This document shows, one piece after another, positions 11,727 to 48,227 of a stretch of 64,000 nucleotides of DNA. Numbering within the stretch: the stretch's first letter is position 1; each line of letters opens with the position of its first letter. The notes under the pieces are model-generated. The model was not told where the DNA came from. It worked only from the letters and a program-made list of their open reading frames with translations, and made no database searches. Location of the stretch: NCBI GenBank assembly GCA_045107075.1, contig JBGCFV010000060.1, positions 9,317 through 73,316 of the forward strand. The letters run 5' to 3'. A program made the translations under genes and the position numbers. The stretch is from Gammaproteobacteria bacterium. Lineage in GTDB: Bacteria > Pseudomonadota > Gammaproteobacteria > Steroidobacterales > SZUA-146.

Positions 11727-11854
11727 GAAAATGGGCCTCGGCTATCAGATATAAGCGTCTACAGCATCGCTCTCAGTAAGAAAAAAGTCAAAGCAGATTG
11801 AAACCGGATGGCCTGACTGGTATACAAAGACTCTTTACTGGCGGGAGCAAACTG

Positions 11855-12620: not shown

Positions 12621-13382
12621 ATGGATTTGGGACTACGCGACAAACGCGCAATAATTACGGGTGCTACGAAAGGCATTGGCCGTAAAATTCTGGAGCAACT
12701 CATAAGCGAAGGATGCACCGTTGCAACGTGCTCGCGTTCAATCGAAGACGTTGAAGACATTATTGAAAGGTGTTCCACACGCAAGGCTGAAGTCATTGGC
12801 GACGCTTGTGATGTAAAAGACAAAGAAGAATACGAGGCCTGGATTGACAACATGGCTGAGCGCATGGGCGGAGTCGATATTTTTATTCCGAACGTAAGCG
12901 CTGGTGGTGGTATGGACAGCGAGCGTAACTGGTGGAAAAATTTCGAGACCGACGTACTGGGAACTGTTCGCGGTTGCGAAGCGGTCGTTCCACACATGAA
13001 AGAAGGTGGAGGAGGTGCCATAACCATTATGGGCACGACGGCAGCCATTGAAACGTTTGGCGTTCCTCAAGCTTTTAACGCGATGAAAGCATCGCTTATT
13101 ACCTATGCAAAGCAGCTTTCACAGTTCGTGGGGCACGACAATATTCGCGTTAATGCGGTGTCCCCCGGGCCCATCGAGTTTCCGGGTGGTTCTTGGGAAA
13201 TGCTTAAGGACACCATGCCAAAATGGTATGCGAAAGTGGTACGAGATCACCCAACCGCTCGACTGGGTACTCCTGAAGAGGTGGCAAAATGCGTTGCGTT
13301 CTTGTCGAGCCCTGCAGCTCAGTGGGTTAACGGAAGTAACCTGATCGTTGACGGCGGCTTTACCAAGCGAGTGCAGTTTTAA
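12621..13382 (+). CDS. SDR family oxidoreductase
   Basis: The Rossmann motif is AIITGATKGIGRK. Stop TAA at 13380-13382 directly abuts GTG 13383 of the next gene. Confidence 0.8.
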   Translation: MDLGLRDKRAIITGATKGIGRKILEQLISEGCTVATCSRSIEDVEDIIERCSTRKAEVIGDACDVKDKEEYEAWIDNMAERMGGVDIFIPNVSAGGGMDSERNWWKNFETDVLGTVRGCEAVVPHMKEGGGGAITIMGTTAAIETFGVPQAFNAMKASLITYAKQLSQFVGHDNIRVNAVSPGPIEFPGGSWEMLKDTMPKWYAKVVRDHPTARLGTPEEVAKCVAFLSSPAAQWVNGSNLIVDGGFTKRVQF

Positions 13383-14687
13383 GTGTCAAACAAACCCTAC
13401 AAGAATTTCAAGCGTGTAACAGAGGCTGTTAAGAACGGCACGCCAATAGAGCACGCTCCTCCAGATGATTTTGGCTACGAGATGATTCCGAAGGAGCGCT
13501 ATATCTCGGCTGACTACATGGAGCGCGAATGGCACAAAATGTGGAGCAAGGTGTGGCTTCTTGGCGGCTTTGAAAGCGATATGGCGGAGCCGGGCGATTT
13601 CGTCTGTCTTGACGTAGGTCGTGAGTCAGTGATTCTTGTGCGCCAGCCAGACGGCGGTGTGAAAGCGTTTGCCAACGTGTGCATGCACCGTGGTAATCGA
13701 CTGGTCGACGAGGGGGCTGACAACGCCGAGTCCTTTAAGTGTTCCTATCACGGTTGGGAATACGGATTGAATGGGCGGTTTGTCAATATTCCCAATGGTG
13801 AATTATTTCCGCAGGGCAAACCCTGTAGCGGGCTCGCTGAATTACCTTGTAGAGTCTGGAATACGTTTGTCTGGTTCAGTCTTGATAAAAACGTCATGCC
13901 CTTTGAAGAGTATATGGCACCTTTGCTGGGTCACTTCGAGCCCTATCATTTCGAACGTATGACGCTCGTCAGAGATATCACTGTTGAATGGGATTGCAAC
14001 TGGAAAACATCGGTCGACGCTTTTAACGAAACCTACCATGTGGCGGCAACCCATCCGCAGTTACTGTGGTACCTGAATGAAATGGATGTTCAGATAGATT
14101 GCTACGACCGACACTCTCGTTATCTTGTTCCTTTCGGAATGACAAGTCCGCATATCGAGCGCATTCCTGAAATACCGCCACCTCTTAAAAGCATGTTGCA
14201 CGACGCGGGTCTCGACCCGGCCTCGTATCAGGGGCCTGTTGACGGTATCCGGGAGACGGTGCAAAAGCACCTGCGCGAAACGGCTAAAGAAACCGGACGG
14301 GATTTTTCTGACCTCAACGATGATCAATTGACCGATGATTTTAACTACCTGGTTTTTCCCAACCTGACTTTTAATACTCACGCCGATCACCTGATGCTGT
14401 TTCGGCACCGACCTCATCCGACGGACCCGGATCGCATGTTCTTCGACACCTGGACGTTTGAGTACATTGTTGACGAAGACGAGTTGCCGGAAGAGCGGCC
14501 GCGTCACCGTCAATACTCGGGCGGAGAAAAGTCGCTCGGTATGGTCATCGACCAGGATGGTGCCAATTTGCCGAAGGTGCAAAAAGGTATGCACAGTGCC
14601 TCTTACGACGGGCTTTGGCTTGGTGATCTTGAGGTACGGATTCGGCATTTCCACAAGACGCTGGAAAGCTATCTGGATGCCGAATAG
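13383..14687 (+). CDS. Rieske non-heme iron aromatic-ring-hydroxylating oxygenase, alpha subunit (alpha-only / phthalate-family type)
   Basis: The Rieske CxH...CxxH is CMHRGNRL...CSYHGWEY. The mononuclear Fe motif is DAFNETYHVAATH. GTG start is coupled to the upstream stop. No beta subunit follows. Confidence 0.8.
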   Translation: MSNKPYKNFKRVTEAVKNGTPIEHAPPDDFGYEMIPKERYISADYMEREWHKMWSKVWLLGGFESDMAEPGDFVCLDVGRESVILVRQPDGGVKAFANVCMHRGNRLVDEGADNAESFKCSYHGWEYGLNGRFVNIPNGELFPQGKPCSGLAELPCRVWNTFVWFSLDKNVMPFEEYMAPLLGHFEPYHFERMTLVRDITVEWDCNWKTSVDAFNETYHVAATHPQLLWYLNEMDVQIDCYDRHSRYLVPFGMTSPHIERIPEIPPPLKSMLHDAGLDPASYQGPVDGIRETVQKHLRETAKETGRDFSDLNDDQLTDDFNYLVFPNLTFNTHADHLMLFRHRPHPTDPDRMFFDTWTFEYIVDEDELPEERPRHRQYSGGEKSLGMVIDQDGANLPKVQKGMHSASYDGLWLGDLEVRIRHFHKTLESYLDAE

Positions 14688-14721
14688 ACACAAGTAACAT
14701 TTGATCGGGGTCGATACGAAT

Positions 14722-14742
14722 AAAAACAGTCAGTACTGTTTC
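14722..14742. promoter_or_regulatory. palindromic operator-like site (AAACAGTC-AG-TACTGTTT), copy 1 of 4
   Basis: aaaaACAGTCagTACTGTTtc lies 90-110 bp upstream of the E1-alpha start. It shares AACAGTC-NN-GACTGTT half-sites with the sites at 20509, 23690 and 31759. Confidence 0.5.
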
Positions 14743-14829
14743 TTTTATTTGATTAGCTTCGTATACTGGGACAAGCGAAGAGGGCGGGGACCACCGCGCC
14801 ACCAAGCGCCGGACTACAAGGAATTGACT

Positions 14830-15792
14830 ATGAATCAAGAGCAGCTGCTGCAGGCCTATCGGCAAATGAAAACCATCCGGGAATTCGAAGAGCGTCTGCA
14901 TGTCGAGATTGCGACCGGTGCCATTCCCGGTTTCACCCATTTGTACAGCGGCCAGGAAGCGGTTGCAGTTGGCGTCTGCTTAAATCTCGACGTGGATGAT
15001 TACATTGTCAGTACTCACAGAGGTCACGGCCACTGTATTGCGAAAGGATGCGATGTCGTTGGCATGATGAAAGAAATCTACGGTCGTGCGGATGGCTTGT
15101 GCAAAGGTAAGGGCGGCGCAATGCACATCGCCGACTTCGAAAAAGGCATGCTCGGAGCGAACGCTATCGTTGGTGGCGGACCACCCATTGCAACTGGCGC
15201 GGCGATTGCCACCAAGCTCGATGGCAAAGGCAAGGTGACCGTCTCGTTCGGAGGCGATGGCAGTTCTAATCAAGGCACTGTCTTTGAAGCGATGAACCTG
15301 GCGGTAGTGTTAAAACTTCCCACTATTTTCGTTTACGAAGACAATGGCTATGGTGAGCACACCGGCGCGAGCTACGCCGTTGGCAGCGAAGACATCGCCG
15401 CACGTTCAGCTGCGTTTGGAATGCCAGCGCTTAAGGTAGATGGAAGCGATTTGTTTGCGGTTCATGAGGCCATGAGTGAACTGGTGGCGCGGGCCAGAAA
15501 CGGCGAAGGCCCGGCAACACTGGAATGCAAAACCACGCGATTCTACGGTCATTTCGAAGGTGATCCTCAGCGTTATCGGGCAAAAGACGAAGTGGCTGAA
15601 CATCGGGCAACGATGGACTGCCTGACTATTTTTAAACAGCGGGTCACAGAGTCTCAGCAGGTCGATGAGAATGCGTTAGCTCGTATAGATGCCGAAGTCA
15701 GCGCGTTAATTGAACACGCGGTGGAAGCGGCACAAAACGCGCCAGCGCCGACCTTGGAAGATCTGACTACTGACGTGTACGTGACGTATTAG
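14830..15792 (+). CDS. thiamine-diphosphate-dependent 2-oxoacid/acetoin dehydrogenase E1 component, alpha subunit
   Basis: MNQEQLLQAYRQMKTIREFEERLH plus the GDG(x)nN TPP motif FGGDGSSNQGTVFEAMN. AAGGA RBS precedes ATG 14830. The track ORF from 14701 has no support. Confidence 0.85.
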   Translation: MNQEQLLQAYRQMKTIREFEERLHVEIATGAIPGFTHLYSGQEAVAVGVCLNLDVDDYIVSTHRGHGHCIAKGCDVVGMMKEIYGRADGLCKGKGGAMHIADFEKGMLGANAIVGGGPPIATGAAIATKLDGKGKVTVSFGGDGSSNQGTVFEAMNLAVVLKLPTIFVYEDNGYGEHTGASYAVGSEDIAARSAAFGMPALKVDGSDLFAVHEAMSELVARARNGEGPATLECKTTRFYGHFEGDPQRYRAKDEVAEHRATMDCLTIFKQRVTESQQVDENALARIDAEVSALIEHAVEAAQNAPAPTLEDLTTDVYVTY

Positions 15793-15847
15793 AATCCTTG
15801 ATCAATCTGTGTTTTTCACCTGACTATCCAAGACGAAGAGAATTCAT

Positions 15848-16852
15848 ATGCCAGTTAAGTCTATGCGTGACGCATTAAACGAAACGTTGCATCAGGAGAT
15901 GGAACGAGACCCTAAGATAATTGTGCTTGGTGAGGACGTTGCAGGCGGACAGGGTGGTACCGGCGTCGAAGAAGCGGCCGGCGGCATCTTCGGTGTAACC
16001 AGTGGCCTTTACAAGAAGTTCGGTGCCGACCGCGTAATTGATACGCCGATCAGCGAATCCGCTATTGTAGGTGCCGCGGCTGGTGCCGCTCTTGCCGGGT
16101 ATCGGCCGGTTGCTGAGCTCATGTTTGCTGACTTCATCGGTGTTTCGATGGACCAGCTTTACAACCAGATTGCCAAGTTTCGCTATATGTTCGGTGGTAA
16201 AACAAAATGCCCGGCTATCATTCGTATGCCCACCGGTGCCGGCATGAACATGGGGGCGCAGCATTCACAAACAATCTACTCAATTGTGACCAGTGTTCCA
16301 GGCTTAAAGGTGGTGATACCTTCTAACGCCGCCGACGCAAAAGGCATGTTAACCACGGCGTTACGTGAAGACGACCCCGTCGTCTTTTTCGAACACAAGG
16401 CGCTGTACCCTAAAAAATGTGAAGTGCCAGACGGCGACTATCTCGTTCCATTCGGCGAGGCAGCGCTAGTACGAGAAGGCGATGATGTAACGGTAGTCGC
16501 CATAGCGCGGATGGTTCCTTTTGCAGAAAAGGCCATTGATAAACTGGCAAGTGACGGTATTACCTGTGACCTGGTTGACCCGCGCACAACGTCGCCGCTG
16601 GATCTGGAAACGATACTTGAAAGCCTTGAAAACACCGGGCGGCTTGTAGTCGTTGATGAATCAAATCCGCGCTGCAGTACCGCATCAGACATTGCCGGTC
16701 TGGTTGCCGTACACGGATTTCACTCGTTGAAAGCCCCCGTCGAAATGGTCACGGCACCGCATACACCGGTACCATTTGCGCGCGAGCTTGAGCGTGCTTA
16801 CGTACCTAGTCCTGTCGCTATCGAAGCGGCCATTCGCAAAGTTCTGGGTTAA
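15848..16852 (+). CDS. 2-oxoacid/acetoin dehydrogenase E1 component, beta subunit (transketolase-like)
   Basis: 334 aa with typical E1-beta motifs (IVLGEDV..., FGGKTKCPAIIRMPTGAG). Confidence 0.9.
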   Translation: MPVKSMRDALNETLHQEMERDPKIIVLGEDVAGGQGGTGVEEAAGGIFGVTSGLYKKFGADRVIDTPISESAIVGAAAGAALAGYRPVAELMFADFIGVSMDQLYNQIAKFRYMFGGKTKCPAIIRMPTGAGMNMGAQHSQTIYSIVTSVPGLKVVIPSNAADAKGMLTTALREDDPVVFFEHKALYPKKCEVPDGDYLVPFGEAALVREGDDVTVVAIARMVPFAEKAIDKLASDGITCDLVDPRTTSPLDLETILESLENTGRLVVVDESNPRCSTASDIAGLVAVHGFHSLKAPVEMVTAPHTPVPFARELERAYVPSPVAIEAAIRKVLG

Positions 16853-16857
16853 AACAT

Positions 16858-18078
16858 ATGACAATTACGGCAGTGACCATTCCCAAATGGGGAATAGAAA
16901 TGCAGGAGGCTACGTTCTCCGATTGGCATGTTGAGCTTGGTGCTGAAGTGTCAAAAGGTGATGAGCTGGCCGATCTTGAAACCGACAAAATAGTTAACGT
17001 GGCCGAAGCGCCGGCGAGCGGTATTTTACGACGCCGTATCGCTGAAAACGGTGACGTTTATTCGGTGGGCGTTCTGATTGCCGTGATCGCCGATGCCAAT
17101 ATCAGTGACGAGGAGATTGACGCCTTTGTCGACGCCTTTGTTCCCATTGACGCGTCGTTTGATGAAGGTGACACTGAGGTGGCCGTGGCGAGCACAGTTG
17201 AGACAGCTCCAGCACCTTTGTCTGCACCACCTGCCGCGACAGCAACGGGCGCTGTGAGTATTAGCCCAATCGCTCGTCGTCTTGCCGAAAAGCTTGGCGT
17301 TGACTGGAGCGGAATTCAGGGTACCGGCAATAACGGGCGAATTTCTAAACAGGACATCGAGGCGGCCACAGCAGCGGCCAGTAGCGGCAGCGCTGCGGCA
17401 TCCGAGCCGTTGCAGCGTACCGGGTTGCAACGCACTGTTGCAACGCGCATGACCGAAGCCAAGCAGCAGATACCACACTTTTATTTACGTATTGAGGTTG
17501 AGCTTGACCGTGCCGAGACATTGCGCAGTGAGTTCAATGAGCGCCAGAACGCAAAGCTAACTATGAACGATGTGTTGTTAGTTGCTGTTGGCAAAAGCCT
17601 TGAAGAGTCTCCCGCGATAAACGTGCAGTATCGCGACGGCGAAGTGTATTCGATGGCGGGTTCCGACGTTGGCGTGGCTATTGCGTCACAACACGGGCTC
17701 GTGGCACCTGTAATTCGGGATGTGGCTAAGGCTAACATCAGCGCGGTTAGTCATAGTGTGCGAGCACTCAGCGATGCGGCTGATAAGCGGGAACTCAAAG
17801 CGGAGCATTTCGAGGGAGGTGCGACTACGGTGTCGAACCTGGGGAGCTACGGGGTGTCGGATTTCGTTGCTATTATTAACCCGCCGCAAACCTCAATTCT
17901 TGCCGTTGGGCGCGCAGCGCAGAAAGCCGTTGTGCGCGACGGGCAGGTCGGCGTTGCGATTAGCCTGACGTTGAATCTATCGTGCGATCATCGCGCTTTC
18001 GACGGAGCGGCTGGTGCGGGCTTTCTGCGTAACCTCAAGCAGCACCTTGAGCAGCCTGACGTTTTGTTCGGGGTTTAG
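16858..18078 (+). CDS. dihydrolipoamide acyltransferase (E2) component
   Basis: The N-terminal lipoyl domain holds ETDKIVNVAEAP (lipoyl-lysine). It also has a peripheral subunit-binding domain and the C-terminal catalytic motif DHRAFDGA. Confidence 0.85.
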   Translation: MTITAVTIPKWGIEMQEATFSDWHVELGAEVSKGDELADLETDKIVNVAEAPASGILRRRIAENGDVYSVGVLIAVIADANISDEEIDAFVDAFVPIDASFDEGDTEVAVASTVETAPAPLSAPPAATATGAVSISPIARRLAEKLGVDWSGIQGTGNNGRISKQDIEAATAAASSGSAAASEPLQRTGLQRTVATRMTEAKQQIPHFYLRIEVELDRAETLRSEFNERQNAKLTMNDVLLVAVGKSLEESPAINVQYRDGEVYSMAGSDVGVAIASQHGLVAPVIRDVAKANISAVSHSVRALSDAADKRELKAEHFEGGATTVSNLGSYGVSDFVAIINPPQTSILAVGRAAQKAVVRDGQVGVAISLTLNLSCDHRAFDGAAGAGFLRNLKQHLEQPDVLFGV

Positions 18079-18088
18079 TAAACCTGTC

Positions 18089-18114
18089 GAATCCCGGCCA
18101 ACGGGCCGGGATTC
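18089..18114. terminator. perfect 11-bp stem hairpin between convergent genes (bidirectional terminator candidate)
   Basis: gaatcccggcc-aacg-ggccgggattc. Confidence 0.55.
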
Positions 18115-18186
18115 GTTGTCACTGGCGCATGCTTGAATTAACCGAACGTTCGCTCATGTCAATTCAAGTGTTTATCGAAGAGATGA

Positions 18187-18474
18187 TTAAATAGCGTCGA
18201 AAAATTGCAGGTCCATATCTTCTGCAAGACACTCCATTATTCCAGGCACCAGCTCGTCATGAAATTTGCTTTCCATGTGTTCTTTGAACGCGGCTTCGTC
18301 TTTAAACGTTGAATACACAACGTAAGTTCTGGGCTCTTCACGATGTTTGATTACGTCGTAAACCAAAGTATCCGGCTCGTGTTTGTGAGTGAGTCTGGAT
18401 AATTCGCGTTGCAAATCCTCAAAGTCTTTTTCTTTACCTTCTTTTACGACTAGGCGGGCGATGAATGCATTCAT
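18187..18474 (-). CDS. antibiotic-biosynthesis-monooxygenase (ABM) domain protein
   Basis: MNAFIARLVVKEGKEKDFEDL...FKDEAAFKEHMESKFHDEL fits the ABM fold. GGAG RBS precedes ATG at 18474. The longer track ORF to 18618 overlaps the upstream gene. Confidence 0.65.
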   Translation of the reverse strand: MNAFIARLVVKEGKEKDFEDLQRELSRLTHKHEPDTLVYDVIKHREEPRTYVVYSTFKDEAAFKEHMESKFHDELVPGIMECLAEDMDLQFFDAI

Positions 18475-18491
18475 GTTGTTCTCCAAAGTTG

Positions 18492-20147
18492 TTAGCCGAG
18501 TTCTTTTTCGAGCTCGTCGCGTAGTTTGTATTTCTGAATCTTGCTTGTGGACATGGGCCATTCCGTGACGAAGCGGACGTAACGAGGTACTTTGAAGCCC
18601 GCAATTTCGCCTTTGCAAAATGCAATGAGTTCTTCTGCTGTAACAGTCTTGCCGTCAGCCAGTTCTACAAAGGCCGCGGCCACCTCGCCCAAGCGATCAT
18701 CGCTTACGCCGACAACCTGGGCCATTTTCACCGCTTCATGTCTCGCAAGGAACGACTCGATTTCGGCGGCGGCAACGTTTTCGCCACCCACCTTCAGCAT
18801 GTCTTTCGTTCGGCCGTAGAACATGATTTGGCCGTCTGCATTAAAAGCACCGACATCACCCGTGTGATACCAGCCGTCGCTGTCTTTTGCCGAGGCCGTT
18901 TTTTCCGGGTCTTTATAGTAGTAGTCAAACAGGCTGTAACCACGAACAAGAATTTCTCCTCGTTCGTCGACTGGCATTTCTTTACCCGTCTCAAGGCTGA
19001 CTATGCGTACTTCCATCCCAGGTAAGGGTGTTCCCAGTCGACTCACTCGTGTTTCAAGCGGGTCATGTAGTTCACTCGTACAGACAGTACCGGCCGTTTC
19101 CGTCATGCCGAACGTGCCCACCTGTATCGTATTGGGCATTGCTTTTTGCATGGCTTCGGCAATGCCTGGCGGCTGTACGGCAAAATTACTGTTCATCAAC
19201 CGAACTTTGCTCAAGTCGGTCTTTTCAAAATTCGGATGGTGGATCAAGTCGGACATAATGGTAATAAAGCAGGGGTACGTGACTGACGCTTCTTCTCGCT
19301 CAAGCATGTCCAACGCAACACCCGCGTCGAAGTACGACATGGTTAGATACGCGGCGCCGACGTCGAATGAGCTTACGATAGGCAGGATTGCTGCAATGTG
19401 AAACATGGGCAGAGGTGACCAGAAGCGATCATCTTTGGTGAGTTTATATCGCTGTCGGCCTAACGCAATGCTGTTTCGAACCATAGCTTCGTGGCTAATA
19501 ACCGCACCCTTGGGGTTAGCGGTGGTTCCTGATGTGTACAGCATCAAGCCTGGGTCACGTACACGAACCTGCATGCGCCGGCCGTGCACATCGTCGTCAC
19601 TGACCGTTGTTGCAGCCTCGTCGAATTCCGTTTCGCTAAGAAAGCCTGGGGCGCTGCTACTTCCCAGCAGAACAAGGTTGCGCAACATCGGTGCTTCGGT
19701 GAGGTTGGCGTGTCTGGCATCTGTGATTCCAGAAATGCCGGGCAAGCCGCGAGAGAGGCGTTCTACAAAGTTCACCTGTTCGGCAATCTCGTCAGTAGTG
19801 ATAACGGTAACAAGGTCACCGTTTTGCACGACGTAGGTTAATTCGTGAGACTGGTAGCGCGCGTTAATAGGTACCGGCACCGCACCGCAAAGGCTCACTG
19901 CGAAGAAGATTTCCGGGAACTGGTAACAGGTCGGCAGCAGAATACCGACGTGTTCACCCTGTTGCACGCCCAGCGCGAGCAGGCCGCGTGCCCGCTGCAT
20001 GGCTTTGTCTCGCAGTTCAGCGTAGGTCAGGCGAAATTCCGGAAATACGATAGCGGGAGAGTCAGCATGCTCGTCAGCTGCTGACAACAGCAGATCTCCG
20101 AGCGTGGTAACGCGAATGCGGCTGTTCTGGTTGTCTGTTTTACTCAC
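18492..20147 (-). CDS. AMP-dependent acyl-CoA synthetase/ligase (FadD-like)
   Basis: Motifs TSGTTANPKG (AMP-binding) and GWYHTGD. The start is uncertain. GTG at 20147 avoids a 53-nt overlap with the upstream ABM gene. The alternative is ATG at 20210. Confidence 0.75.
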   Translation of the reverse strand: MSKTDNQNSRIRVTTLGDLLLSAADEHADSPAIVFPEFRLTYAELRDKAMQRARGLLALGVQQGEHVGILLPTCYQFPEIFFAVSLCGAVPVPINARYQSHELTYVVQNGDLVTVITTDEIAEQVNFVERLSRGLPGISGITDARHANLTEAPMLRNLVLLGSSSAPGFLSETEFDEAATTVSDDDVHGRRMQVRVRDPGLMLYTSGTTANPKGAVISHEAMVRNSIALGRQRYKLTKDDRFWSPLPMFHIAAILPIVSSFDVGAAYLTMSYFDAGVALDMLEREEASVTYPCFITIMSDLIHHPNFEKTDLSKVRLMNSNFAVQPPGIAEAMQKAMPNTIQVGTFGMTETAGTVCTSELHDPLETRVSRLGTPLPGMEVRIVSLETGKEMPVDERGEILVRGYSLFDYYYKDPEKTASAKDSDGWYHTGDVGAFNADGQIMFYGRTKDMLKVGGENVAAAEIESFLARHEAVKMAQVVGVSDDRLGEVAAAFVELADGKTVTAEELIAFCKGEIAGFKVPRYVRFVTEWPMSTSKIQKYKLRDELEKELG

Positions 20148-20157
20148 GGTGTCAGGC

Positions 20158-20451
20158 TCATTCGAGTGGGTCCAGGTACTCGCGTACGTATGGGCCGTCC
20201 AGGCATTCAATTAATTTGGGTGCTATCTGCTTAAAGTGTTCAGTCTGCTGGTGGGCGTGCTCTGCCTCCTCATTTAAAAAAGATTCGAACACGGCATATG
20301 AGAGAGGCTCACGCAGTTTATAAAACCGAAAGTAGAGCAGCTCGGGTTCGTAAACCACGGCTTTTTCGGTCAGGGTTTTACAGCATTCAATAAACTGCTG
20401 TTCCTTGTCGGCGTGCACCGTCATTCGCGAAAGAAAAGACATTACCGGCAT
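20158..20451 (-). CDS. ABM-domain monooxygenase-like small protein
   Basis: 97 aa, MPVMSFLSRMTVHADKEQQFIECCKTL...; ABM-like beta-alpha-beta pattern. Confidence 0.55.
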   Translation of the reverse strand: MPVMSFLSRMTVHADKEQQFIECCKTLTEKAVVYEPELLYFRFYKLREPLSYAVFESFLNEEAEHAHQQTEHFKQIAPKLIECLDGPYVREYLDPLE

Positions 20452-20508
20452 AACAAAACCCCTCTGACTCGGAAAATTCAGCCTCTAGCATAGCGCTGAC
20501 GCCAATAA

Positions 20509-20530
20509 AAAAACAGTCAGAACTGTTTAT
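20509..20530. promoter_or_regulatory. palindromic operator-like site (AAACAGTC-AG-AACTGTTT), copy 2 of 4
   Basis: aaaaaaACAGTCagaaCTGTttatttttt sits in the divergent region between the ABM gene (minus) and the Rieske ferredoxin gene (plus), about 65 bp from each start. Confidence 0.5.
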
Positions 20531-20584
20531 TTTTTCCGTTTCGAGTTAGATTTGGGTTACGGAAGGGTCTGCAGAGGATGAGGG

Positions 20585-20902
20585 ATGACATCAACGTTTG
20601 TTCTCGACACGAAAGAGGTTGAGGAGGGTGCGACCAAGCCGGTGATTATCGCCGGTCTGCGACTCCTCGTGTGCCACTCGAAGGGCGAGTTCTACGTTAT
20701 TCAAAATCAGTGCTCTCACGCGAAGGCGCGGCTGAAGGGTGGGAAGCTTCGGGGGTGTCGAATCTTCTGTCCACTTCACAGCGCCGCTTTCGATATGCGT
20801 ACTGGCGAAGCGCTTAGCGCTCCGGCAACTGGACCTATAGATGTCTATGCCGTTCATATTGACAACGGTTCGCTCTATATCGATTTGCCTGAGGGTGTTT
20901 AA
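20585..20902 (+). CDS. Rieske [2Fe-2S] ferredoxin (electron-transfer component for Rieske oxygenases)
   Basis: 105 aa with CSHAKARL...CPLHSAAF, which is CxH-(n)-CxxH. Confidence 0.8.
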   Translation: MTSTFVLDTKEVEEGATKPVIIAGLRLLVCHSKGEFYVIQNQCSHAKARLKGGKLRGCRIFCPLHSAAFDMRTGEALSAPATGPIDVYAVHIDNGSLYIDLPEGV

Positions 20903-21078
20903 CCGGATGTGGAAACAGGTGGCGTAGTTAAGAGCAAGGTAAATTCAATTCAAGGTAATTCCAATTGAGACCGGGCTACCGTTAGCACAACAAACAAGCG
21001 AAGACTGGCCTGTTCGACGAGAGCCGTATTGGCACAGAGAAAAATTGTAGATGAGTAATCAATTCAAGAGGTATCAGC

Positions 21079-22440
21079 ATGTCCGTAAACTATAAAGCAC
21101 AGTGGCCCATGAACCTGGGCACAAGCGCACCGTCGCTGGAGGCCAAGCAGCCCGATATTGATAACGGGCTGGATGTGTATGACCCGTCTCGCTATTACTC
21201 TCGGGAGTTTATGGATAAAGAAACGCGAGACCTTTGGCCACGAGTCTGGCTTCTGGCTGGCGTTGCTTCCGATATTCCCGAGGACGGCGACTACTTTGTT
21301 TTTGAAGTCGGCGCGGAACAAATCATTGTGGTTCGGCAGGACGACGATTCCATCGCAGCCTTTTACAACAGCTGTCCGCACCGCGGCAATCGCGTGTGCT
21401 TGAATCACAGCGGTACCGCTGGCAGCTTTACGTGTCCGTTTCACGGTTGGCGTTTTGGTATTGATGGCAAGCTGCAAGAGATCAGTGACGAAAAGACCTT
21501 TGATCCTCGTGTGGTCGCTCACCGGCCAGGGCTAACAGAAGTGCGCTGCGACAGTGTTGGCGGAATTGTGTTTATTAATATGGACGGTAAGGCACCGCCG
21601 CTGGTTGAGTATCTTGGTTTGCCGCCCGGATACATCGAGCAATATGAAGTTGAAAATATGCGCGTTGTGCACCACGTCAAAAGTGCCTGGAAAGCCAATT
21701 GGAAAATTGGTGTAGACGCCTTCTACGAAACGTATCACTTGCCTCACGTACATCCGCAAACTCAAGGGGTGATGGAGGATTTTTCACAAAATGACTTGTA
21801 TCCGAATGGCGCGTCGAGAATGATCGTCCCAATTTGTGTCAAATCGCATCGTATGGAAGATCAAGACTCCGTAGATCCTTATCAGGCGGCCATGATGATT
21901 GAGGCGGGAATGGATCCTGCAACGTTCAGTGGTACGGCGGCCGACGTGCGTGCCGCGGTTCAAGTTGCCAAGCGGGAGAGGGCGAAGAAACTCGGTTTGA
22001 CCCACTACGATAACTTTACCGATGGACAGTTAACCGACAGCTGGGCGACAGGATTGTTTCCCAATGTGCAGATGGGTATGCATCCAGAAGGGGTATTTAT
22101 AATGCGGTTCTTGCCACACTCGCACGACCCGGAGCAGTTCTACTACGAAACCATGATTCTCTATCGTCCGGTTGATGATCCTGATTACAACGTTCCAGCC
22201 TGGATGGGATTGCCCGAAGGCACGGATTGTTCAGGTGAGACGCGGCCCGATGTTATTCATGTGCCCCTTGGCGAAAGCCCTAACCTGGGCGAGGTGCTGG
22301 ACCAGGACGCAGAGCTGCTCCCGGTCCAGCAGCAAGGCGTTCGTTCGCGCGGTTTTCGTGGCGCCCTGTTTGGGGACCAGGAGCAGCGCGTAAGGCACTT
22401 CGAAGCGGAGGTTGAGCGCTACGTTAATGGTGAGAAATAG
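21079..22440 (+). CDS. Rieske non-heme iron oxygenase alpha subunit (alpha-only type), paralog 2
   Basis: CPHRGNRV...CPFHGWRF and DAFYETYHLPHVH. AAGAGG RBS. Confidence 0.85.
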   Translation: MSVNYKAQWPMNLGTSAPSLEAKQPDIDNGLDVYDPSRYYSREFMDKETRDLWPRVWLLAGVASDIPEDGDYFVFEVGAEQIIVVRQDDDSIAAFYNSCPHRGNRVCLNHSGTAGSFTCPFHGWRFGIDGKLQEISDEKTFDPRVVAHRPGLTEVRCDSVGGIVFINMDGKAPPLVEYLGLPPGYIEQYEVENMRVVHHVKSAWKANWKIGVDAFYETYHLPHVHPQTQGVMEDFSQNDLYPNGASRMIVPICVKSHRMEDQDSVDPYQAAMMIEAGMDPATFSGTAADVRAAVQVAKRERAKKLGLTHYDNFTDGQLTDSWATGLFPNVQMGMHPEGVFIMRFLPHSHDPEQFYYETMILYRPVDDPDYNVPAWMGLPEGTDCSGETRPDVIHVPLGESPNLGEVLDQDAELLPVQQQGVRSRGFRGALFGDQEQRVRHFEAEVERYVNGEK

Positions 22441-22462
22441 TCGTTACGCGCCACGCGGGTGA

Positions 22463-23659
22463 TCAAGCGCGCTGGTTGAATCGTCGGCCTATCATTGCGC
22501 TTGTGATATTCGTCTTTTGAATGTCGATTGCGCCGCCGGCAATACCCCAGCCCCATGCGTCACGCATACGTCGCTCCATGCGGTATTCGCACGAGTATCC
22601 GTAGCCGCCCATAAGCTGTACTGCATTGCCGGTTACGGTACGAGCTATTTCGTTGGCGAAGCACTTTGCAATCGATGATTCCTGAATGCTTGGCATACCG
22701 TTTTCGGCATTTGAAATAGCACGATAAATAAGCAAGCGTGCTGCATCCACCTGCATTTGCATTTCGGCGAGACGCAATTGAACGGCTTGAAAGTCGACAA
22801 TGGGTTTGCCGAACTGTCTACGCTCTTGAACATAGGCGAGCGTTTCTTCAAGTGCGCCGGAGGCTTGGCCCAGCGCCATCGTTGCGTTGCCGCAGCGCTC
22901 GAGATCAAACGCCTGCATTAATTTGCCGAAGCCACCCGCATTGACAACCACGTTTTCGAGTGGCAGTTCGACGTTGTCAAAATAGACGTCGGAAGAGGGT
23001 ACGCCACGAAAACCCATTAGCTTTTCTTGCTTGCCAAACGTGATGCCGGGTGTTTCCTTGTCGACGAACACAGCGCCGATGCTTTGGGCTCCCGGTTTTT
23101 CAGCCATACGGCAATACACAAGATAACCGTCGGCATGTCCACCGCCTGAACACCAGCGCTTCATGCCATTAAGGCGCACACTGTCGCTACCGATTTCGGC
23201 GCGGGTGGTTAAGTCGGTCAAAGCCGAGCCTGCATTGGGCTCCGACATGGCGATGGCAACTACCATCTCGCCGCGACATACGGCGGGAATTACTCGTTGC
23301 TGCAACGCAGAGCTGCCGAAGTGTTCGATGGCTTTGACCGGGCCGGTGTAGGATTCGAATATCGGAAACGCAATGGCGGAGGATATTTTTGCAAATTCCT
23401 CCAAGACGATTAACGCATCGAGGCTGGTTTGACCCAGGCCGCCAAATTCTTCAGGAATGTTGATACCGAGAAATCCCATGTCGGCAAACTCGGCAATCAG
23501 TTCTTTCGTAGGTGGTTCCATTGACCGTTCTATTTCATCGGCAATGTCTGGGAGTTTCGACTGTGCGTAGGCGCGTGCTGCGTCGCGCATTTCCTGCTGT
23601 TCCGGCGTAAGGGAGAAATCCATCGAATGTGTTACCTTGTCGAGCGAAAAGAAAGTCAC
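22463..23659 (-). CDS. acyl-CoA dehydrogenase
   Basis: 398-aa ACAD fold; the C-terminus ...YEGTSEIQ-like region reads GGYGYSCEYRMERRMRDAWGW. Confidence 0.85.
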   Translation of the reverse strand: MTFFSLDKVTHSMDFSLTPEQQEMRDAARAYAQSKLPDIADEIERSMEPPTKELIAEFADMGFLGINIPEEFGGLGQTSLDALIVLEEFAKISSAIAFPIFESYTGPVKAIEHFGSSALQQRVIPAVCRGEMVVAIAMSEPNAGSALTDLTTRAEIGSDSVRLNGMKRWCSGGGHADGYLVYCRMAEKPGAQSIGAVFVDKETPGITFGKQEKLMGFRGVPSSDVYFDNVELPLENVVVNAGGFGKLMQAFDLERCGNATMALGQASGALEETLAYVQERRQFGKPIVDFQAVQLRLAEMQMQVDAARLLIYRAISNAENGMPSIQESSIAKCFANEIARTVTGNAVQLMGGYGYSCEYRMERRMRDAWGWGIAGGAIDIQKTNITSAMIGRRFNQRA

Positions 23660-23689
23660 TTCACGCGATTATTGCAGCATTCGCTTAAA

Positions 23690-23711
23690 AAAAACAGTCA
23701 AGACTGTTTAT
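23690..23711. promoter_or_regulatory. palindromic operator-like site (AAACAGTC-AA-GACTGTTT, perfect 18-bp palindrome), copy 3 of 4
   Basis: The site lies in the divergent promoter region between the ACAD gene (minus, about 40 bp) and Rieske oxygenase 3 (plus, about 85 bp). Confidence 0.5.
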
Positions 23712-23787
23712 TTTGTTAGATATTAAACCTATACTTCTGGGTCATAAGTCGAAAACGACTTTGCTATTCGTGCTCACATCACGATGA

Positions 23788-25017
23788 ATGCTGGAGGGAT
23801 TAGTGGACAAGGCGACGATTGAACGGATTCTCTCAGGAATGAAGTTTGAGGCTGAGCGAGAGAGCCCTCCAGAAAACTTTCCGCGAATGCCCGATATTCC
23901 GGGCGGGCGGTACGTCGACCCGGCTTTCAATACATTAGAACATAAGCATTTGTGGCACAAAGCCTGGCTGTACGCCGCGCATATTGACGAGTTTCCTAAA
24001 GTCGGCAGTTTCAAAATGTTTACTCGAACGGGTGCCCCGATTTTCCTGATTCGAGGAAAAGACGATGAGATTCGCGCGTTTTACAACACCTGCCAACACC
24101 GTGGTGGTCCCTTGGTCAAGACGGACGCCGGTTCCGTTCGCAATCTTGTTTGCGGCTATCATGGTTGGTCCTATGATTTTACCGGCAAGCTGATAAACCT
24201 GCGTGATAAACGGGACTTTGTCGACCTAGATATGAACTGTCGTTCTCTCAAGGGTATCCGCTGTGAACGTTTTGGCAACTGGATCTTTGTGAGTGAAGAC
24301 CGTGATGCCGCACCTCTCCTTGAATCTTTAGGTCCGATTCCCAGTCATCTTGAGCCGTTTCAACTTGAGTCTCTCAGGCTCGTGGATTCCGCGTCTTATA
24401 CCGTCGACTGCAATGTCAAAATAATTCAAGACGCGTTTCTCGAGGTTTACCACCTCAAGTCGATACACCTGAAAACAGTTGATCGTTTTCTTGACCACAG
24501 AGGTACTACCATCTCTCTGTACGAAGGTGGGCATTCACTTATGGTCACTCCCAATCGTCGTGAAGGCTGGGTCGACCCGGGCACAATTGGTATGCCGGAC
24601 ACAGAGACAGTTCCCGATATCGTTCGCAATAATAATTTTTCCTACAATATGTACCCGAACATCGTGAGCCCAGTGGCTCATAACGGCATGCCCTTTATCG
24701 TGTTTTGGCCAAAGACTCACAACACGATGGTATTGGATGTCCATTGGTTTGCTCCAGACTGGGGCGGCGGAGAAAGAAACCCGCTGTGGGATAAACGAAT
24801 TGAAAATTTCGATCGAATTCTTGAAGAAGACACGCAGTTTGCACCTCAAATTCAGGCGTCGGTCGAGTCGCCTGGTTTTAAAGGGGTGCCACTGAACTAT
24901 CAGGAGAGACGCATCTATCACTGGCACGAAGAGCTTGATCGTCGCATCGGATCAGACAATATTAAACCCGATTTACGTGTAGATCCTGTGCTAAAAGATT
25001 TCGTGAGTCGCACTTAG
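23788..25017 (+). CDS. Rieske non-heme iron oxygenase alpha subunit (alpha-only type), paralog 3
   Basis: CQHRGGPL...CGYHGWSY and DAFLEVYHLKSIH. An alternative GTG start at 23803 follows a GGAGGG RBS. Confidence 0.8.
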   Translation: MLEGLVDKATIERILSGMKFEAERESPPENFPRMPDIPGGRYVDPAFNTLEHKHLWHKAWLYAAHIDEFPKVGSFKMFTRTGAPIFLIRGKDDEIRAFYNTCQHRGGPLVKTDAGSVRNLVCGYHGWSYDFTGKLINLRDKRDFVDLDMNCRSLKGIRCERFGNWIFVSEDRDAAPLLESLGPIPSHLEPFQLESLRLVDSASYTVDCNVKIIQDAFLEVYHLKSIHLKTVDRFLDHRGTTISLYEGGHSLMVTPNRREGWVDPGTIGMPDTETVPDIVRNNNFSYNMYPNIVSPVAHNGMPFIVFWPKTHNTMVLDVHWFAPDWGGGERNPLWDKRIENFDRILEEDTQFAPQIQASVESPGFKGVPLNYQERRIYHWHEELDRRIGSDNIKPDLRVDPVLKDFVSRT

Positions 25018-26444
25018 TGATAGGCATTGCAAGAATAGGCGTCTACTTACCGCAGTTACGACTGCGTCGTGACGCCATTGCATCAGCTCACGCATGGGGC
25101 GTACCCGCTTTAAAAGCACATGCGAAAGGCACGGTCGCTACCAGCAACTGGGATGAAGATGCGGTCACTATGGCGCACGAGGCGGCAAGGGAGATAGTCG
25201 TTACATCCGAATCCGACATCTCGGGCTTAAGCTTTTGCTCTACAAGTATGCCTTTTGCTGATCGTTCTCATGCAACCTTGCTGTGCGAAGCGCTAGGCTT
25301 GCAAACGAATATTCCCGTGCAAGACATAGCCGCTTCTCAGCGCGCCGGTACCTCAACTTTAATGGCTGCACTTCAAGGCCAAAGATCAGGCGAGCTGGTG
25401 ATTGCTTCTGAGCGACGTAAAGCACAGCCTGCCAGTGTGCAAGAAATGACGTATGGAGATGCGGCGGTCGCGCTTACCACAGGCGTCAGTAATCTGCTGG
25501 CAGAGTTCGTCGCGGCTACGTCTGTCAATGCTGATTTTGTTGATCACTATCGCTCCGCAGACAGCCAGTTTGACTACGCGTTCGAGCCGCGTTGGGTGCG
25601 CGATGAAGGCCAGCTTAAGCTCATAGCGGAAGCCATCGAAAGTGTGCTTGCAAAAGCAAAATGCGGAGCGTTGAGTGTCAATAGGCTGGTGATCAATGCG
25701 CCAACACGGGTAGCTGCGAAGCTGGCTAAAGCGACCGGTCTTGATAACGCCAACAGTGCATCAGTTATCGCCCAGCAAATCGGTCTGTCCGGCTGCGCAT
25801 CTCCACTAATGGCTTTGGCTGAATCCCTCGAGACCGCGCGTGAGGGCCAGTTAGTACTGTGTATCGGATTTGGGCAGGGTGCTGACGCGATGTTATTCCG
25901 TGCGGGACCAGCTGCCGGTAAACCTGAGGCTTTTTCTGCCGCGCTTTCCAAGGGCGTCGAAGATACGAATTATCTCAGATTTTTAAGTAATCGGAATTTG
26001 ATTGACATGGACTGGGGCATGCGAGCTGAACGGGATGTGCGCACCGCGCAGAGTGCGTACTATCGCGAACGAAATCAGATCACGGCGATGGTTGGCGGGC
26101 TGTGTTCGGCGTGTGGAACAGTGCAGTTTCCAAGAACCAAAAGTTGTGTCAATCCAGCGTGTCGTGAGCTGGGCGAGCAAGGTGAGTATTCGTTCGCAGG
26201 TAAACATGGTCGAGTTAAATCGTTTACCGAAGACTGGCAGGCGTACTCGCCTTCGCCGCCACTGACGTATGGCAACATCGAATTCGAAGGCGGGGCCAAC
26301 ATCATGATGCAGTTTACCGATACAAGAGCAGGAGATACGCAAATTGGTACTGAGGTTTCAATGCACTTTCGAATTAAAGACATTGACCGGCACCGAAATT
26401 TTCGCCGTTATTTTTGGAAAGCTATAGCGGCAGAGGCACTATAG
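25017..26444 (+). CDS. fusion protein: HMG-CoA-synthase-like thiolase-fold domain + DUF35 (Zn-ribbon/OB-fold) domain
   Basis: The N-terminal ~310 aa have the HMGCS/KAS-III-like fold (IGIARIGVYLPQLRL...). The C-terminal part has a 4-Cys zinc ribbon, CSACGTVQF...CVNPAC, followed by an OB-fold. This is characteristic of DUF35 proteins that partner SCP-x thiolases. GTG start overlaps the upstream stop (TAGTG). Confidence 0.7.
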   Translation: MIGIARIGVYLPQLRLRRDAIASAHAWGVPALKAHAKGTVATSNWDEDAVTMAHEAAREIVVTSESDISGLSFCSTSMPFADRSHATLLCEALGLQTNIPVQDIAASQRAGTSTLMAALQGQRSGELVIASERRKAQPASVQEMTYGDAAVALTTGVSNLLAEFVAATSVNADFVDHYRSADSQFDYAFEPRWVRDEGQLKLIAEAIESVLAKAKCGALSVNRLVINAPTRVAAKLAKATGLDNANSASVIAQQIGLSGCASPLMALAESLETAREGQLVLCIGFGQGADAMLFRAGPAAGKPEAFSAALSKGVEDTNYLRFLSNRNLIDMDWGMRAERDVRTAQSAYYRERNQITAMVGGLCSACGTVQFPRTKSCVNPACRELGEQGEYSFAGKHGRVKSFTEDWQAYSPSPPLTYGNIEFEGGANIMMQFTDTRAGDTQIGTEVSMHFRIKDIDRHRNFRRYFWKAIAAEAL

Positions 26445-28516: not shown

Positions 28517-29047
28517 ATGAGGCTCCCAACGGGTAGAACACCGTTTCAACAAGCGTGGGTGGTTAACGACATAGAGCAAACGGCCCGGAGTTGGTCGGCC
28601 AGCTTAAACATAGGCCCATTTTATATCGCTGAATACACTCCGGACATGTTCGAATTCATTGACTACCGTGGGGGAGCGGGCAGCTTGCATATGAAAACGG
28701 CGATTGCGTACTCTGGCGACTCTCAAATTGAGTTGGTCGAGCCACTGGGGACCGCACCCAGTATCTATCGCGATGTGTATGAAAATGGACAGACCGGATT
28801 TCATCATCTGTGTTTCTGGAGTGACGAGTTTGAGCGTGATCTCGAACATCATGTGAGCCAGGGCCACGTCATTGCCAATGAGGGGAAAATGAAACGGGGG
28901 CCGCGATTTGCATACGTTGACGCAACGGAGACGTTGAACTGTGTTATCGAGGTGCTCGAGAGGCGACCGGCGCTCGTTGCGTTGTTTGACGAATGGCGCG
29001 AAGCCGCGAAAAGTTGGGACGGGAAGCGACCCGTAGTGAAGTTATAA
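28517..29047 (+). CDS. VOC (glyoxalase/bleomycin-resistance/extradiol dioxygenase) family protein
   Basis: 176 aa. A paired beta-alpha-beta-beta-beta module pattern is typical of the VOC superfamily. Confidence 0.55.
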   Translation: MRLPTGRTPFQQAWVVNDIEQTARSWSASLNIGPFYIAEYTPDMFEFIDYRGGAGSLHMKTAIAYSGDSQIELVEPLGTAPSIYRDVYENGQTGFHHLCFWSDEFERDLEHHVSQGHVIANEGKMKRGPRFAYVDATETLNCVIEVLERRPALVALFDEWREAAKSWDGKRPVVKL

Positions 29048-48225: not shown

Positions 48226-48227
48226 AC

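Follow-up and report, generated by a model that had tools for sequence, protein, structure and literature searches.

Three Rieske oxygenases without beta subunits and a single Rieske ferredoxin in a putative regulon of a gammaproteobacterium

The window analysed here is a 64 kb stretch of contig JBGCFV010000060.1 (assembly GCA_045107075.1) from a member of the Gammaproteobacteria, and it contains a gene cluster with three genes for Rieske oxygenases. We call these RoA (13383-14687), RoB (21079-22440) and RoC (23788-25017) and number ligand residues as in RoA. The data suggest that the three are functional, Glu-bridged enzymes without beta subunits that belong to one co-regulated catabolic pathway, each with its own follow-up chemistry, and we put the probability of this reading at a little over one half (about 0.55).

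RESULTS AND DISCUSSION

Three intact Rieske oxygenases without beta subunits

Every open reading frame (ORF) of at least 150 aa in the window was searched against Pfam. RoA (434 aa), RoB (453 aa) and RoC (409 aa), all on the + strand, each contain a PF00355 Rieske domain (E 4e-16 to 8e-17) and a PF00848 Ring_hydroxyl_A domain that is matched end to end (E 9e-21 to 2e-30). This agrees with a prediction made earlier from the sequence alone (the original prediction), which had placed three Rieske oxygenase ORFs of 409-453 aa at 13383, 21079 and 23788. RoA is identical to the NCBI protein MFK8031831 and RoB to MFK8031839.

The Rieske ligands C-x-H...C-x2-H are found in all three oxygenases and in a 105-aa ferredoxin encoded between RoA and RoB. 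A three-way alignment gives C100, H102, C120 and H123 as the Rieske ligands of RoA, H219, H224 and D392 as its iron ligands and E216 as the bridging carboxylate. These residues are invariant in the three paralogues and in all 118 RoA, RoB and RoC sequences gathered from related loci. RoA, RoB and RoC are therefore not pseudo-enzymes, which disposes of the concern, raised with the original prediction, that a paralogue might have lost its iron ligands. The iron motif of the three is D-x3-E-x2-H-x4-H (DAFxExYHxxxxH); the original prediction was right about CxH..CxxH in all of them but had D-x2-H-x4-H at the iron site, without the bridging Glu. None of the paralogues or orthologues departs from this Glu. 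In HMMER alignments it is aligned to the Glu of Stc2 (NRECYHCSSNH), whereas naphthalene dioxygenase (NDO) has Asp at the same position (GDAYHVGWTH).

No gene for a small beta subunit (PF00866) was found in the window by Pfam, in the ORF list or by inspection of the gaps. The gap after RoA is 13 nt if the mechanically called E1alpha ORF is used (14701-15792, 363 aa, TTG start). That ORF is too long, as the orthologues have 322-329 aa, and the real start is the ATG at 14831, which is preceded by an AAGGA ribosome-binding site. The resulting spacer of 143 nt contains an operator-like site but no ORF. Only 22 nt separate RoB from a convergent acyl-CoA dehydrogenase (ACAD) gene, and RoC leaves no gap, its stop overlapping the start of the gene behind it. 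Between 8.3 and 34.3 kb Pfam places all coding sequence in other families, and the NCBI protein numbers, which run consecutively from RoA (MFK8031831) to the ferredoxin (ending in 38) and RoB (MFK8031839), agree with our gene list. The description of the oxygenases as alpha-only thus stands, and no adjacent beta-subunit ORF had been overlooked in the window.

The same is true of related loci. ORFs were called in 85 of these and compared with the proteins of the window, and two more loci (L086 and L087; L numbers denote related loci throughout) bring the set to 87. There is no small NTF2-like gene behind RoA, RoB or RoC in any of the 87. Clustering of the unassigned neighbours in these loci gave CMD/AhpD-like proteins (32 loci), crotonases (16) and CaiB/BaiF-type CoA transferases (10), with no beta subunit and no recurrent reductase among them. 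Judged by their sequences, RoA, RoB and RoC are catalytically intact Rieske non-heme iron oxygenases without beta subunits, and they are presumably alpha3 homotrimers.

The three oxygenases can be aligned with one another over their full length, with pairwise identities of 36% (RoA-RoB), 26% (RoA-RoC) and 27% (RoB-RoC). The strong divergence that had been predicted is borne out by these values. The full-length alignment of RoB and RoC scores 155 bits. RoC lacks about 75 catalytic-domain residues in comparison with RoA and RoB, spread over several deletions, and RoB is the best conserved of the three. From these comparisons they are ancient paralogues that fall into three separate orthologous groups.

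A palindromic site marks the cluster

There are three perfect copies of the palindrome AAACAGT-N4-ACTGTTT in the window, starting at 14724, 20511 and 23692. The first (AAACAGTCAGTACTGTTT, 14724-14741) lies in the spacer between RoA and E1alpha, and this position is also filled in L004, L006, L010, L012, L013, L015 and L023. The second (AAACAGTCAGAACTGTTT, 20511-20528) lies in the divergent promoter region between the ABM/acyl-CoA synthetase genes and the ferredoxin and RoB genes, and is kept upstream of the ferredoxin in L004-L015 and L023. The third (AAACAGTCAAGACTGTTT, 23692-23709) lies in the divergent promoter region between the ACAD gene and RoC. These two divergent promoter regions share a nearly identical stretch, which consists of an A-run, AAACAGTC-N2-GACTGTTT and a T-run. 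A fourth operator-like site (31761-31778), with two mismatches and with the A-run and T-run flanks kept, lies between the genes for a pyrroloquinoline quinone (PQQ) dehydrogenase (- strand) and a TonB-dependent receptor (+ strand).

There is a fifth match at 41866, also with two mismatches, which lies outside the cluster and is without the A/T-run flanks; we take it to be a chance match. The number of matches expected by chance is 0.27 and no shuffle reached five. Additionally, perfect copies of the palindrome are found at corresponding places in 24 related loci. With the palindrome at four promoter regions and its recurrence in related loci, the cluster therefore looks like one regulon marked by a putative operator. 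The TetR-family regulator (Pfam TetR_N) encoded at 11082-11726 on the - strand, divergently from SDR1, is the candidate for the protein that binds it. That the palindrome might be a terminator was considered and rejected, because three of the four sites are in the intergenic regions of divergent gene pairs and the stem consists largely of A and T.

Each oxygenase belongs to a conserved module

Relatives of RoB with 66-83% identity number in the hundreds in metagenomes and metagenome-assembled genomes (MAGs), all of them generically named, and RoA has 1,427 relatives at E<=1e-50. Orthologue identity is 55-81% for RoA and 59-72% for RoC. In a species scan (one genome per species) relatives of RoB were present in at least 207 genomes. 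The best 80 of the 207 were inspected, and all are uncultured MAGs of Gamma- and Alphaproteobacteria (Woeseiaceae, Steroidobacteraceae, Parvularculaceae/Hyphococcus, Rhodobiaceae and unclassified Gammaproteobacteria) from marine habitats, including sediment, and from soil, freshwater and wastewater. The same genes recur as modules, the order of which differs from one group of MAGs to another (Woeseiaceae-like, Steroidobacteraceae, Parvularculaceae and Rhodobiaceae). L006 has the full gene set in the order of the window.

The first module (M1) has the TetR gene divergent from SDR1-SDR2-RoA-E1alpha-E1beta-E2-(VOC-VOC). In the window, two short-chain dehydrogenase/reductase (SDR) genes of the Pfam adh_short family, SDR1 (11798-12604, + strand) and SDR2 (12621-13382, + strand), are upstream of RoA in the same operon, SDR2 directly so. 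A pyruvate dehydrogenase (PDH)-like unit (14831-18078, + strand) follows RoA and comprises E1alpha (Pfam E1_dh, from the ATG at 14831), E1beta (15848-16852, Transket_pyr/Transketolase_C) and a full-length lipoyl E2 (16858-18078, Biotin_lipoyl+E3_binding+2-oxoacid_dh). Against the PDH-type models of NCBIfam, E1alpha and E2 are under the cut-offs and E1beta is just over that of PRK09212. Wherever RoA occurs, SDR2 precedes it and E1alpha follows it; the order SDR1-SDR2-RoA is conserved across related loci, and a TetR orthologue is beside SDR1 in L001, L006, L067, L074, L076, L079, L086 and L087. On gene context we rejected the reading of E1/E2 as a probable housekeeping PDH, since these genes come after RoA in all lineages and have the putative operator of the cluster.

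In the second module (M2) an ABM-acyl-CoA ligase-ABM trio is divergent from the ferredoxin and RoB. The ligase is an acyl-CoA synthetase (18492-20210, - strand, Pfam AMP-binding), and the ABM-domain proteins are encoded at 18187-18618 and 20158-20451, both on the - strand. Two small antibiotic biosynthesis monooxygenase-like (ABM) proteins thus flank the ligase, and the trio is kept opposite the ferredoxin and RoB in many loci, the whole unit being found in L004-L016 and L023.

The third module (M3) has the ACAD gene (22463-23659, - strand; Pfam, NCBIfam) divergent from RoC, which is followed by a PhlA/DUF35 fusion, a thiolase, SDR3, sometimes a CMD-like gene, and RoB. In the window the fusion (25017-26444, + strand, 475 aa) joins a PhlA-like domain, which resembles hydroxymethylglutaryl-CoA synthase (HMGCS), to DUF35, and it is followed by an SCP-x/PhlC-like thiolase that retains its Cys (26414-27640, + strand, NLCATG) and by SDR3 (27641-28513, + strand), all assigned by Pfam and NCBIfam. 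Wherever RoC occurs it is followed by the fusion and then the thiolase, with SDR3 immediately after or nearby, and the ACAD gene is kept beside RoC or the ferredoxin. The best PDB matches of the fusion are PhlA (5m3k/9skh) and an archaeal HMGCS+DUF35 complex (6esq), at low identity (E 1e-17). In a residue-level alignment the nucleophilic Cys of HMGCS (FACKAGT) is Gln in the fusion (AASQRAGT) and Gly in PhlA, and the PhlA-like domain therefore looks like a scaffold rather than a catalyst. The genes for this predicted PhlACB-like complex stand in a catabolic setting and are translationally coupled to RoC.

The original prediction had offered either three different steps on one scaffold or three related substrates. 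Each oxygenase has a distinct, fixed downstream module, and three steps in one pathway therefore fits better than three related substrates.

A Glu-bridged subfamily of its own

RoA, RoB and RoC were compared with solved structures by phmmer, and an AlphaFold model of RoB only was compared with the PDB by Foldseek. The phmmer matches are confined to the first ~230 residues, with ~20% identity. They are equally good to alpha3beta3 dioxygenases (3-nitrotoluene, nitrobenzene, naphthalene and biphenyl dioxygenases, HcaE and phthalate 3,4-dioxygenase) and to enzymes without beta subunits (Stc2, CntA and 3n0q). The top PDB sequence matches of RoA and RoB are alpha3beta3 enzymes (3-nitrotoluene dioxygenase, HcaE, nitrobenzene dioxygenase (NBDO), NDO and phthalate 3,4-dioxygenase), and the best match of RoC is Stc2. 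As the three align with one another over their full length but with solved structures over the N-terminal part only, they therefore appear to be a subfamily of their own, and the comparisons indicate that it is a distinct Glu-bridged subfamily of PF00848.

The strongest alternative is an unlikely one. It holds that the three are N- or O-demethylases or dealkylases akin to group V (GbcA, Stc2, CntA and OxyBAC), which take methyl or alkyl groups one after another off a single compound, betaine-like or methoxylated, the leftover carbon skeleton then entering the CoA-dependent enzymes. Among the NCBIfam models GbcA scores highest with each of the three, at 113-134 bits where the cut-off is 670 and over the N-terminal half only, and the match of RoC to Stc2 points the same way. 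The bridging Glu corresponds to E205 of CntA (PMC7948474). Two residues before it group V has a substrate-binding position, which is Tyr or Phe in Va and Asn in Vb, Y203 in CntA and Phe in OxyBAC (PMC7948474); RoA, RoB and RoC have an invariant Phe at that place in the sequence, which may or may not bind a substrate. However, the Cys pair found around the first His ligand in Stc2 and in CntA (C206/C209; PMC7948474) is absent from all three, where the sequence is E-T/V-Y-H-V/L, with Thr/Val and Val/Leu instead. The partner here is a Rieske ferredoxin and not a CntB-type FMN/[2Fe-2S] reductase, and similarity to NDO, NBDO and HcaE is as high as that to Stc2 and CntA. The neighbouring genes (P450, PQQ dehydrogenase, TonB-dependent receptor, SCP-x thiolase/DUF35 and the PDH-like complex) are unlike those of betaine catabolism, and there are no formaldehyde- or folate-handling genes among the Pfam-assigned genes of the cluster. 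Demethylation, which the original prediction had listed beside hydroxylation, finds no specific support beyond this weak, sub-threshold resemblance to GbcA and Stc2.

A single ferredoxin and a probably unlinked reductase

There is one stand-alone Rieske-type [2Fe-2S] ferredoxin in the window (20585-20902, + strand, 105 aa, PF00355), with the ligands C43-x-H45...C62-x2-H65. The closest NCBIfam models are ferredoxins of the HcaC/AndAb type, under their cut-offs. A six-frame motif scan of the window found four Rieske signatures only, those of the three oxygenases and of this ferredoxin. Signatures of plant-type, adrenodoxin-type and 4Fe-4S ferredoxins and of true rubredoxins were all absent from the window, the sole rubredoxin-pattern match being the zinc finger of an HNH endonuclease (59788-60357). 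The spacer between the ferredoxin and RoB (20903-21078) is 176 nt long here against ~78 nt in close relatives (L004), and it contains no ORF.

There is no ferredoxin reductase among the window ORFs searched against Pfam, and tblastn with a reductase found inside the cluster in related loci gave no match in the window. Both the single electron-transfer partner and the missing reductase of the original prediction are therefore confirmed for the window. Motif scans for plant-type ferredoxin-fused and glutathione reductase (GR)-type reductases were extended to 6,905 ORFs from 85 loci. There is no FMN/plant-type [2Fe-2S] reductase, nor its Cys motif, in the window or the related loci. A GR-type reductase (Pyr_redox_2+Reductase_C by Pfam, with the N-terminal motif IVGAGQAA...PYQRPPLSK) is inside the cluster in three of the 87 loci only, where it lies between FadB-like and FadA-like genes (L027, 16488-17711; L030, 16399-17661; L031, ~16489-17751). 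Candidates near the ferredoxin in L053, L054, L058, L059 and L062 proved by Pfam to be DAG kinase, thiolase, hydrolase and similar proteins, and none is a reductase. With a reductase in the cluster in 3 of 87 loci, the partner reductase therefore appears to be unlinked as a rule.

No related locus has more than one Rieske ferredoxin, and in about 20 loci there is one within 10 kb of RoB. In the lineage of the window it is directly upstream of RoB. In L033, L038 and L062 it adjoins the ACAD gene, and in L033 and L038 it is thereby upstream of the RoC operon. L086 has a ferredoxin of the same type with the ACAD, RoC and RoA blocks and no RoB nearby. A position that shifts between lineages is the pattern expected of a ferredoxin common to the gene set. 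This suggests that the single ferredoxin serves all three oxygenases, as originally predicted: the count of at most one per locus and the linkage to different paralogues are observed, and the electron transfer itself we infer. Electrons would pass from NAD(P)H to a GR-type FAD ferredoxin reductase, the gene of which usually lies at another place in the genome. They would then go to the Rieske ferredoxin and on to the Rieske centre of each oxygenase, and from there cross between subunits by way of Glu to reach the mononuclear iron.

It is improbable that the ferredoxin serves RoB only and that RoA and RoC use other, unlinked partners or belong to separate pathways whose genes simply lie together. 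In favour of this, the ferredoxin gene directly precedes RoB throughout the lineage of the window, RoA, RoB and RoC are often at separate places in other genomes, and the promoter of SDR1-SDR2-RoA is without the palindrome. Set against this, one palindrome precedes the ferredoxin and RoB, RoC, and the E1/E2 genes behind RoA. The ferredoxin genes of L086, L033, L038 and L062 are associated with the other blocks as described above, no second ferredoxin of any type is present in the window, and the gene set co-occurs across two proteobacterial classes.

A proposed pathway

In the pathway that we propose, the substrate would be imported via the TonB-dependent receptor and undergo periplasmic oxidation by the PQQ quinohaemoprotein. 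The product of RoA would be oxidised by SDR1 and SDR2 to a 2-oxo acid or an alpha-hydroxy/diketone, and the dedicated thiamine/lipoyl E1alpha-beta/E2 complex would cleave the RoA-derived product to an acyl-CoA; a 2-oxo acid or an acyloin could be taken by such a complex. RoC would install an oxygen function, after which SDR3 and the PhlACB-like thiolase/DUF35 complex would cut a C-C bond beyond ordinary beta-oxidation. RoB, with the ferredoxin, the acyl-CoA ligase and the two ABM proteins, would act on an acid that is CoA-activated or about to be. Finishing would be by beta-oxidation of the MaoC/ACAD/SDR/SCP-x type. The three oxygenases would thus place oxygen where ordinary beta-oxidation is blocked.

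The cluster contains a beta-oxidation set of the branched-chain type: MaoC hydratase, SDR, SCP-x thiolase with DUF35, and ACAD. Some loci add a CoA_transf_3 protein, a crotonase and FadBA, and P450, PQQ dehydrogenase and TonB-dependent receptor genes recur. The CoA_transf_3 family we take to include alpha-methylacyl-CoA racemase. L086 and L087 extend the gene set by a P450, a Fer2 ferredoxin and a CoA_transf_3 protein. The P450 follows the PQQ dehydrogenase in these two loci, and L087 also has the Fer2 ferredoxin; the genes concerned are at 20577-21353 in L086 and at 7911-8225 and 20999-21356 in L087. A P450 in the gene set hints at a hydrophobic substrate and at a second type of oxygenase. 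We suggest, tentatively, a hydrophobic alcohol or acid that is methyl-branched or alicyclic (isoprenoid-like).

Steroid side-chain degradation was rejected as a specific claim. Steroid side-chain ACADs are paired subunits, whereas the ACAD here is encoded by a single gene, and the cluster is without KshA, KstD or HsaC-type genes. Work on bile salts in Sphingobium Chol11 concerns KshA-type oxygenases, which are of a different family, and serves as an analogy only.

A bolder version of the pathway is possible but somewhat more speculative than the substrate class. In this undescribed route, which would run in abundant uncultured bacteria of sediment and soil (Woeseiaceae, Steroidobacteraceae and Parvularculaceae), the three enzymes would be Rieske monooxygenases for the hydroxylation of hindered carbons in an isoprenoid-like or alicyclic acid activated with CoA, and each would feed a dedicated C-C-cleaving machine. 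One machine might be the private PDH-like complex, leading to alpha-oxidation or ring opening, and the other the PhlACB-like thiolase complex. If true, RoA, RoB and RoC would be a new functional subgroup within the Rieske oxygenases, and the route would be a novel way round the block that branched carbons pose to beta-oxidation.

A further alternative is improbable. It is an Ipf-like aromatic-acid pathway, in which an aryl-alkanoic acid is activated with CoA, a Rieske dioxygenase attacks the ring of the thioester, thiolase and DUF35 remove the acyl-CoA side chain to leave a catechol, and the VOC proteins cleave the ring. A ligase, a Rieske oxygenase, an SCP-x-type thiolase and DUF35 do co-occur here, which is the logic of ipfABDEF. 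The best PDB matches of the ligase include feruloyl-CoA synthetase and 4-coumarate-CoA ligase, and one or two VOC-fold proteins are recurrent in the cluster. The ferredoxin and reductase of the ibuprofen ipf system are, moreover, unlinked. However, IpfA has a beta subunit (IpfB) and RoA, RoB and RoC have none. The window lacks lower-pathway genes for meta or ortho cleavage (those for a hydrolase, an aldolase or muconate enzymes). The VOC proteins match the Glyoxalase_4 model, presumably a family of the glyoxalase/epimerase type and not of extradiol dioxygenases, and the PDH-like complex has no role in the scheme.

Several points weigh against our reading of one pathway with three functional oxygenases. 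The SDR1 promoter, beside the TetR gene, is without a good copy of the palindrome, and this weakens the case for co-regulation of RoA itself. The closest NCBIfam model, GbcA, together with the Glu that is a hallmark of group V, points to quaternary amines. ACAD and the acyl-CoA ligase score best against short-chain, medium-chain and cyclic-acid models of NCBIfam, all below the cut-offs, which is a poor fit to a long isoprenoid. The reductase of L027, L030 and L031 could serve a P450/Fer2 pair, as seen in L087, instead of the Rieske ferredoxin. There is no characterised homologue, the close relatives all being MAG or metagenome proteins with generic names, and the literature searched holds no description of the gene cluster. 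The AlphaFold model of RoB is mediocre (pLDDT 69.8), and Foldseek ranks alpha3beta3 and alpha3 enzymes equally against it (TM 0.52-0.60, ~20% identity). The fold therefore cannot settle the beta-subunit question, and the structure prediction suggested with the original prediction, carried out for RoB alone, does not separate alpha3 from alpha3beta3 relatives.

That the three are conventional alpha3beta3 ring-hydroxylating dioxygenases with beta subunits encoded elsewhere is very improbable: the PF00848 catalytic domain, the top PDB sequence matches of RoA and RoB and lengths of 434-453 aa, typical of such alpha subunits, would fit, but no NTF2-like gene follows any oxygenase in the 87 loci, RoA and RoC each have their own fixed neighbour downstream, the unassigned neighbours that recur are CMD-like proteins, crotonases and CoA transferases, and the bridging position has the Glu of the beta-less CntA and Stc2 group instead of Asp.

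Distinct putative C-C cleavage modules give a concrete skeleton for the pathway. Identification of the substrate would annotate thousands of metagenomic proteins that are labelled 'aromatic ring-hydroxylating dioxygenase subunit alpha', and could show how common heterotrophs break down a widespread recalcitrant compound.

Other genes of the window

The recurrent extras of the related loci are genes for a GST-like protein, a MaoC hydratase, a ThuA-like protein, a PQQ/cytochrome c dehydrogenase and a TonB-dependent receptor. In the window, Pfam assigns the MaoC-type hydratase to 8383-8835 and the GST-like protein (304 aa) to 8842-9756, both on the - strand and both recurrent members of the cluster. 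They are followed by a CoA transferase of the acetyl-CoA-hydrolase/transferase family (9828-11072, + strand). Downstream of SDR3 are four recurrent peripheral members: a VOC/glyoxalase-fold protein (28517-29047, + strand), the ThuA-like protein (29096-29833, - strand), the PQQ quinohaemoprotein dehydrogenase with a cytochrome c domain (29833-31704, - strand) and the TonB-dependent receptor (31726-34293, + strand). Orthologues of this peripheral set (VOC, ThuA-like, PQQ dehydrogenase and TonB-dependent receptor) are found in L008, L022, L027-L042, L086 and L087.

The rest of the window includes a complete glycogen operon (38938-50312) with genes for 4-alpha-glucanotransferase, ADP-glucose pyrophosphorylase, glycogen synthase, branching enzyme, phosphorylase and debranching enzyme. 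Three adjacent genes at 50543-54057 encode a putative ATP-dependent zinc protease, an inactive-transglutaminase/7TM protein and an ATP-grasp protein of the sugar-transfer-associated type. A 189-aa ORF (59042-59611, - strand) weakly matches the start of the catalytic domain of cobalamin-independent methionine synthase and may be a fragment. Near it are the genes for the HNH endonuclease and RtcB (62672-63868).

Comparison with known systems

The group V enzymes (CntA, GbcA/BmoA and Stc2) are like RoA, RoB and RoC in having a Rieske domain, a PF00848-type domain and the E-x2-H-x4-H motif, and CntA is a beta-less alpha3 enzyme. They differ in that identity is ~20% over the N-terminal half only and that RoA, RoB and RoC are without the Cys pair. 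Group V has a fused FMN/[2Fe-2S] reductase and a role in betaine catabolism, in contrast with the stand-alone Rieske ferredoxin and the context of CoA-dependent, lipid-like catabolism here. Enzymes of the NDO/BPDO/HcaEF type differ in another way: RoA, RoB and RoC have neither an adjacent PF00866 gene nor the bridging Asp. The stand-alone ferredoxin of ~105 aa is like that of class IIB-like three-component systems.

Carbazole 1,9a-dioxygenase is a three-component system of the beta-less, trimeric CarAa, the Rieske-type ferredoxin CarAc and the reductase CarAd. CarAa (3gcf) is a weak PDB match in the Rieske domain only (E ~1e-6 to 1e-8); its catalytic domain is of a different type, and car operons link the ferredoxin and reductase genes to the oxygenase. 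The caffeine N-demethylases NdmA, NdmB and NdmC are paralogous oxygenases without beta subunits that carry out successive steps on a single scaffold and share one electron chain through a single reductase, NdmD. They are weak and more distant PDB matches here (E ~1e-6), and NdmD carries a Rieske domain within the reductase itself, in contrast with the free ferredoxin of the window. In sphingomonads and for LigXa/LigXc/LigXd, electron-transfer genes are scattered in the genome, and sphingomonad oxygenase sets share one ferredoxin/reductase pair. The substrates of the Ndm, sphingomonad and LigX systems are aromatic or heteroaromatic.

In the ibuprofen system ipfABDEF, a ligase, a Rieske oxygenase, an SCP-x-type thiolase and DUF35 act on a CoA thioester. 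Unlike the cluster described here, it has a beta subunit for IpfA, one oxygenase, no PhlA-like scaffold and no PDH-like complex. PhlACB of 2,4-diacetylphloroglucinol biosynthesis and the archaeal thiolase/HMGCS/DUF35 complex share with the RoC module the combination of an HMGCS/KAS-III-like protein, a DUF35 zinc-ribbon/OB protein and an SCP-x-like thiolase. PhlA, like the fusion in the window, has lost the catalytic Cys of HMGCS. In contrast with PhlACB, the PhlA-like and DUF35 parts are fused here, the context is catabolic and the genes are coupled to a Rieske oxygenase.

Taken together, these comparisons show that the architecture is an ordinary one by analogy. Oxygenases without beta subunits are known in CntA, Stc2, CarAa, Ndm and LigXa, a feeding ferredoxin in carbazole dioxygenase, a shared chain in Ndm and sphingomonads, and an unlinked reductase in sphingomonads, LigX and Ipf. 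With these precedents the missing beta subunit and the lack of a nearby reductase are therefore no anomaly. What is unusual is a conserved, operator-marked cluster in uncultured bacteria in which such oxygenases are tied to PDH-like or PhlACB-like modules predicted to cleave C-C bonds.

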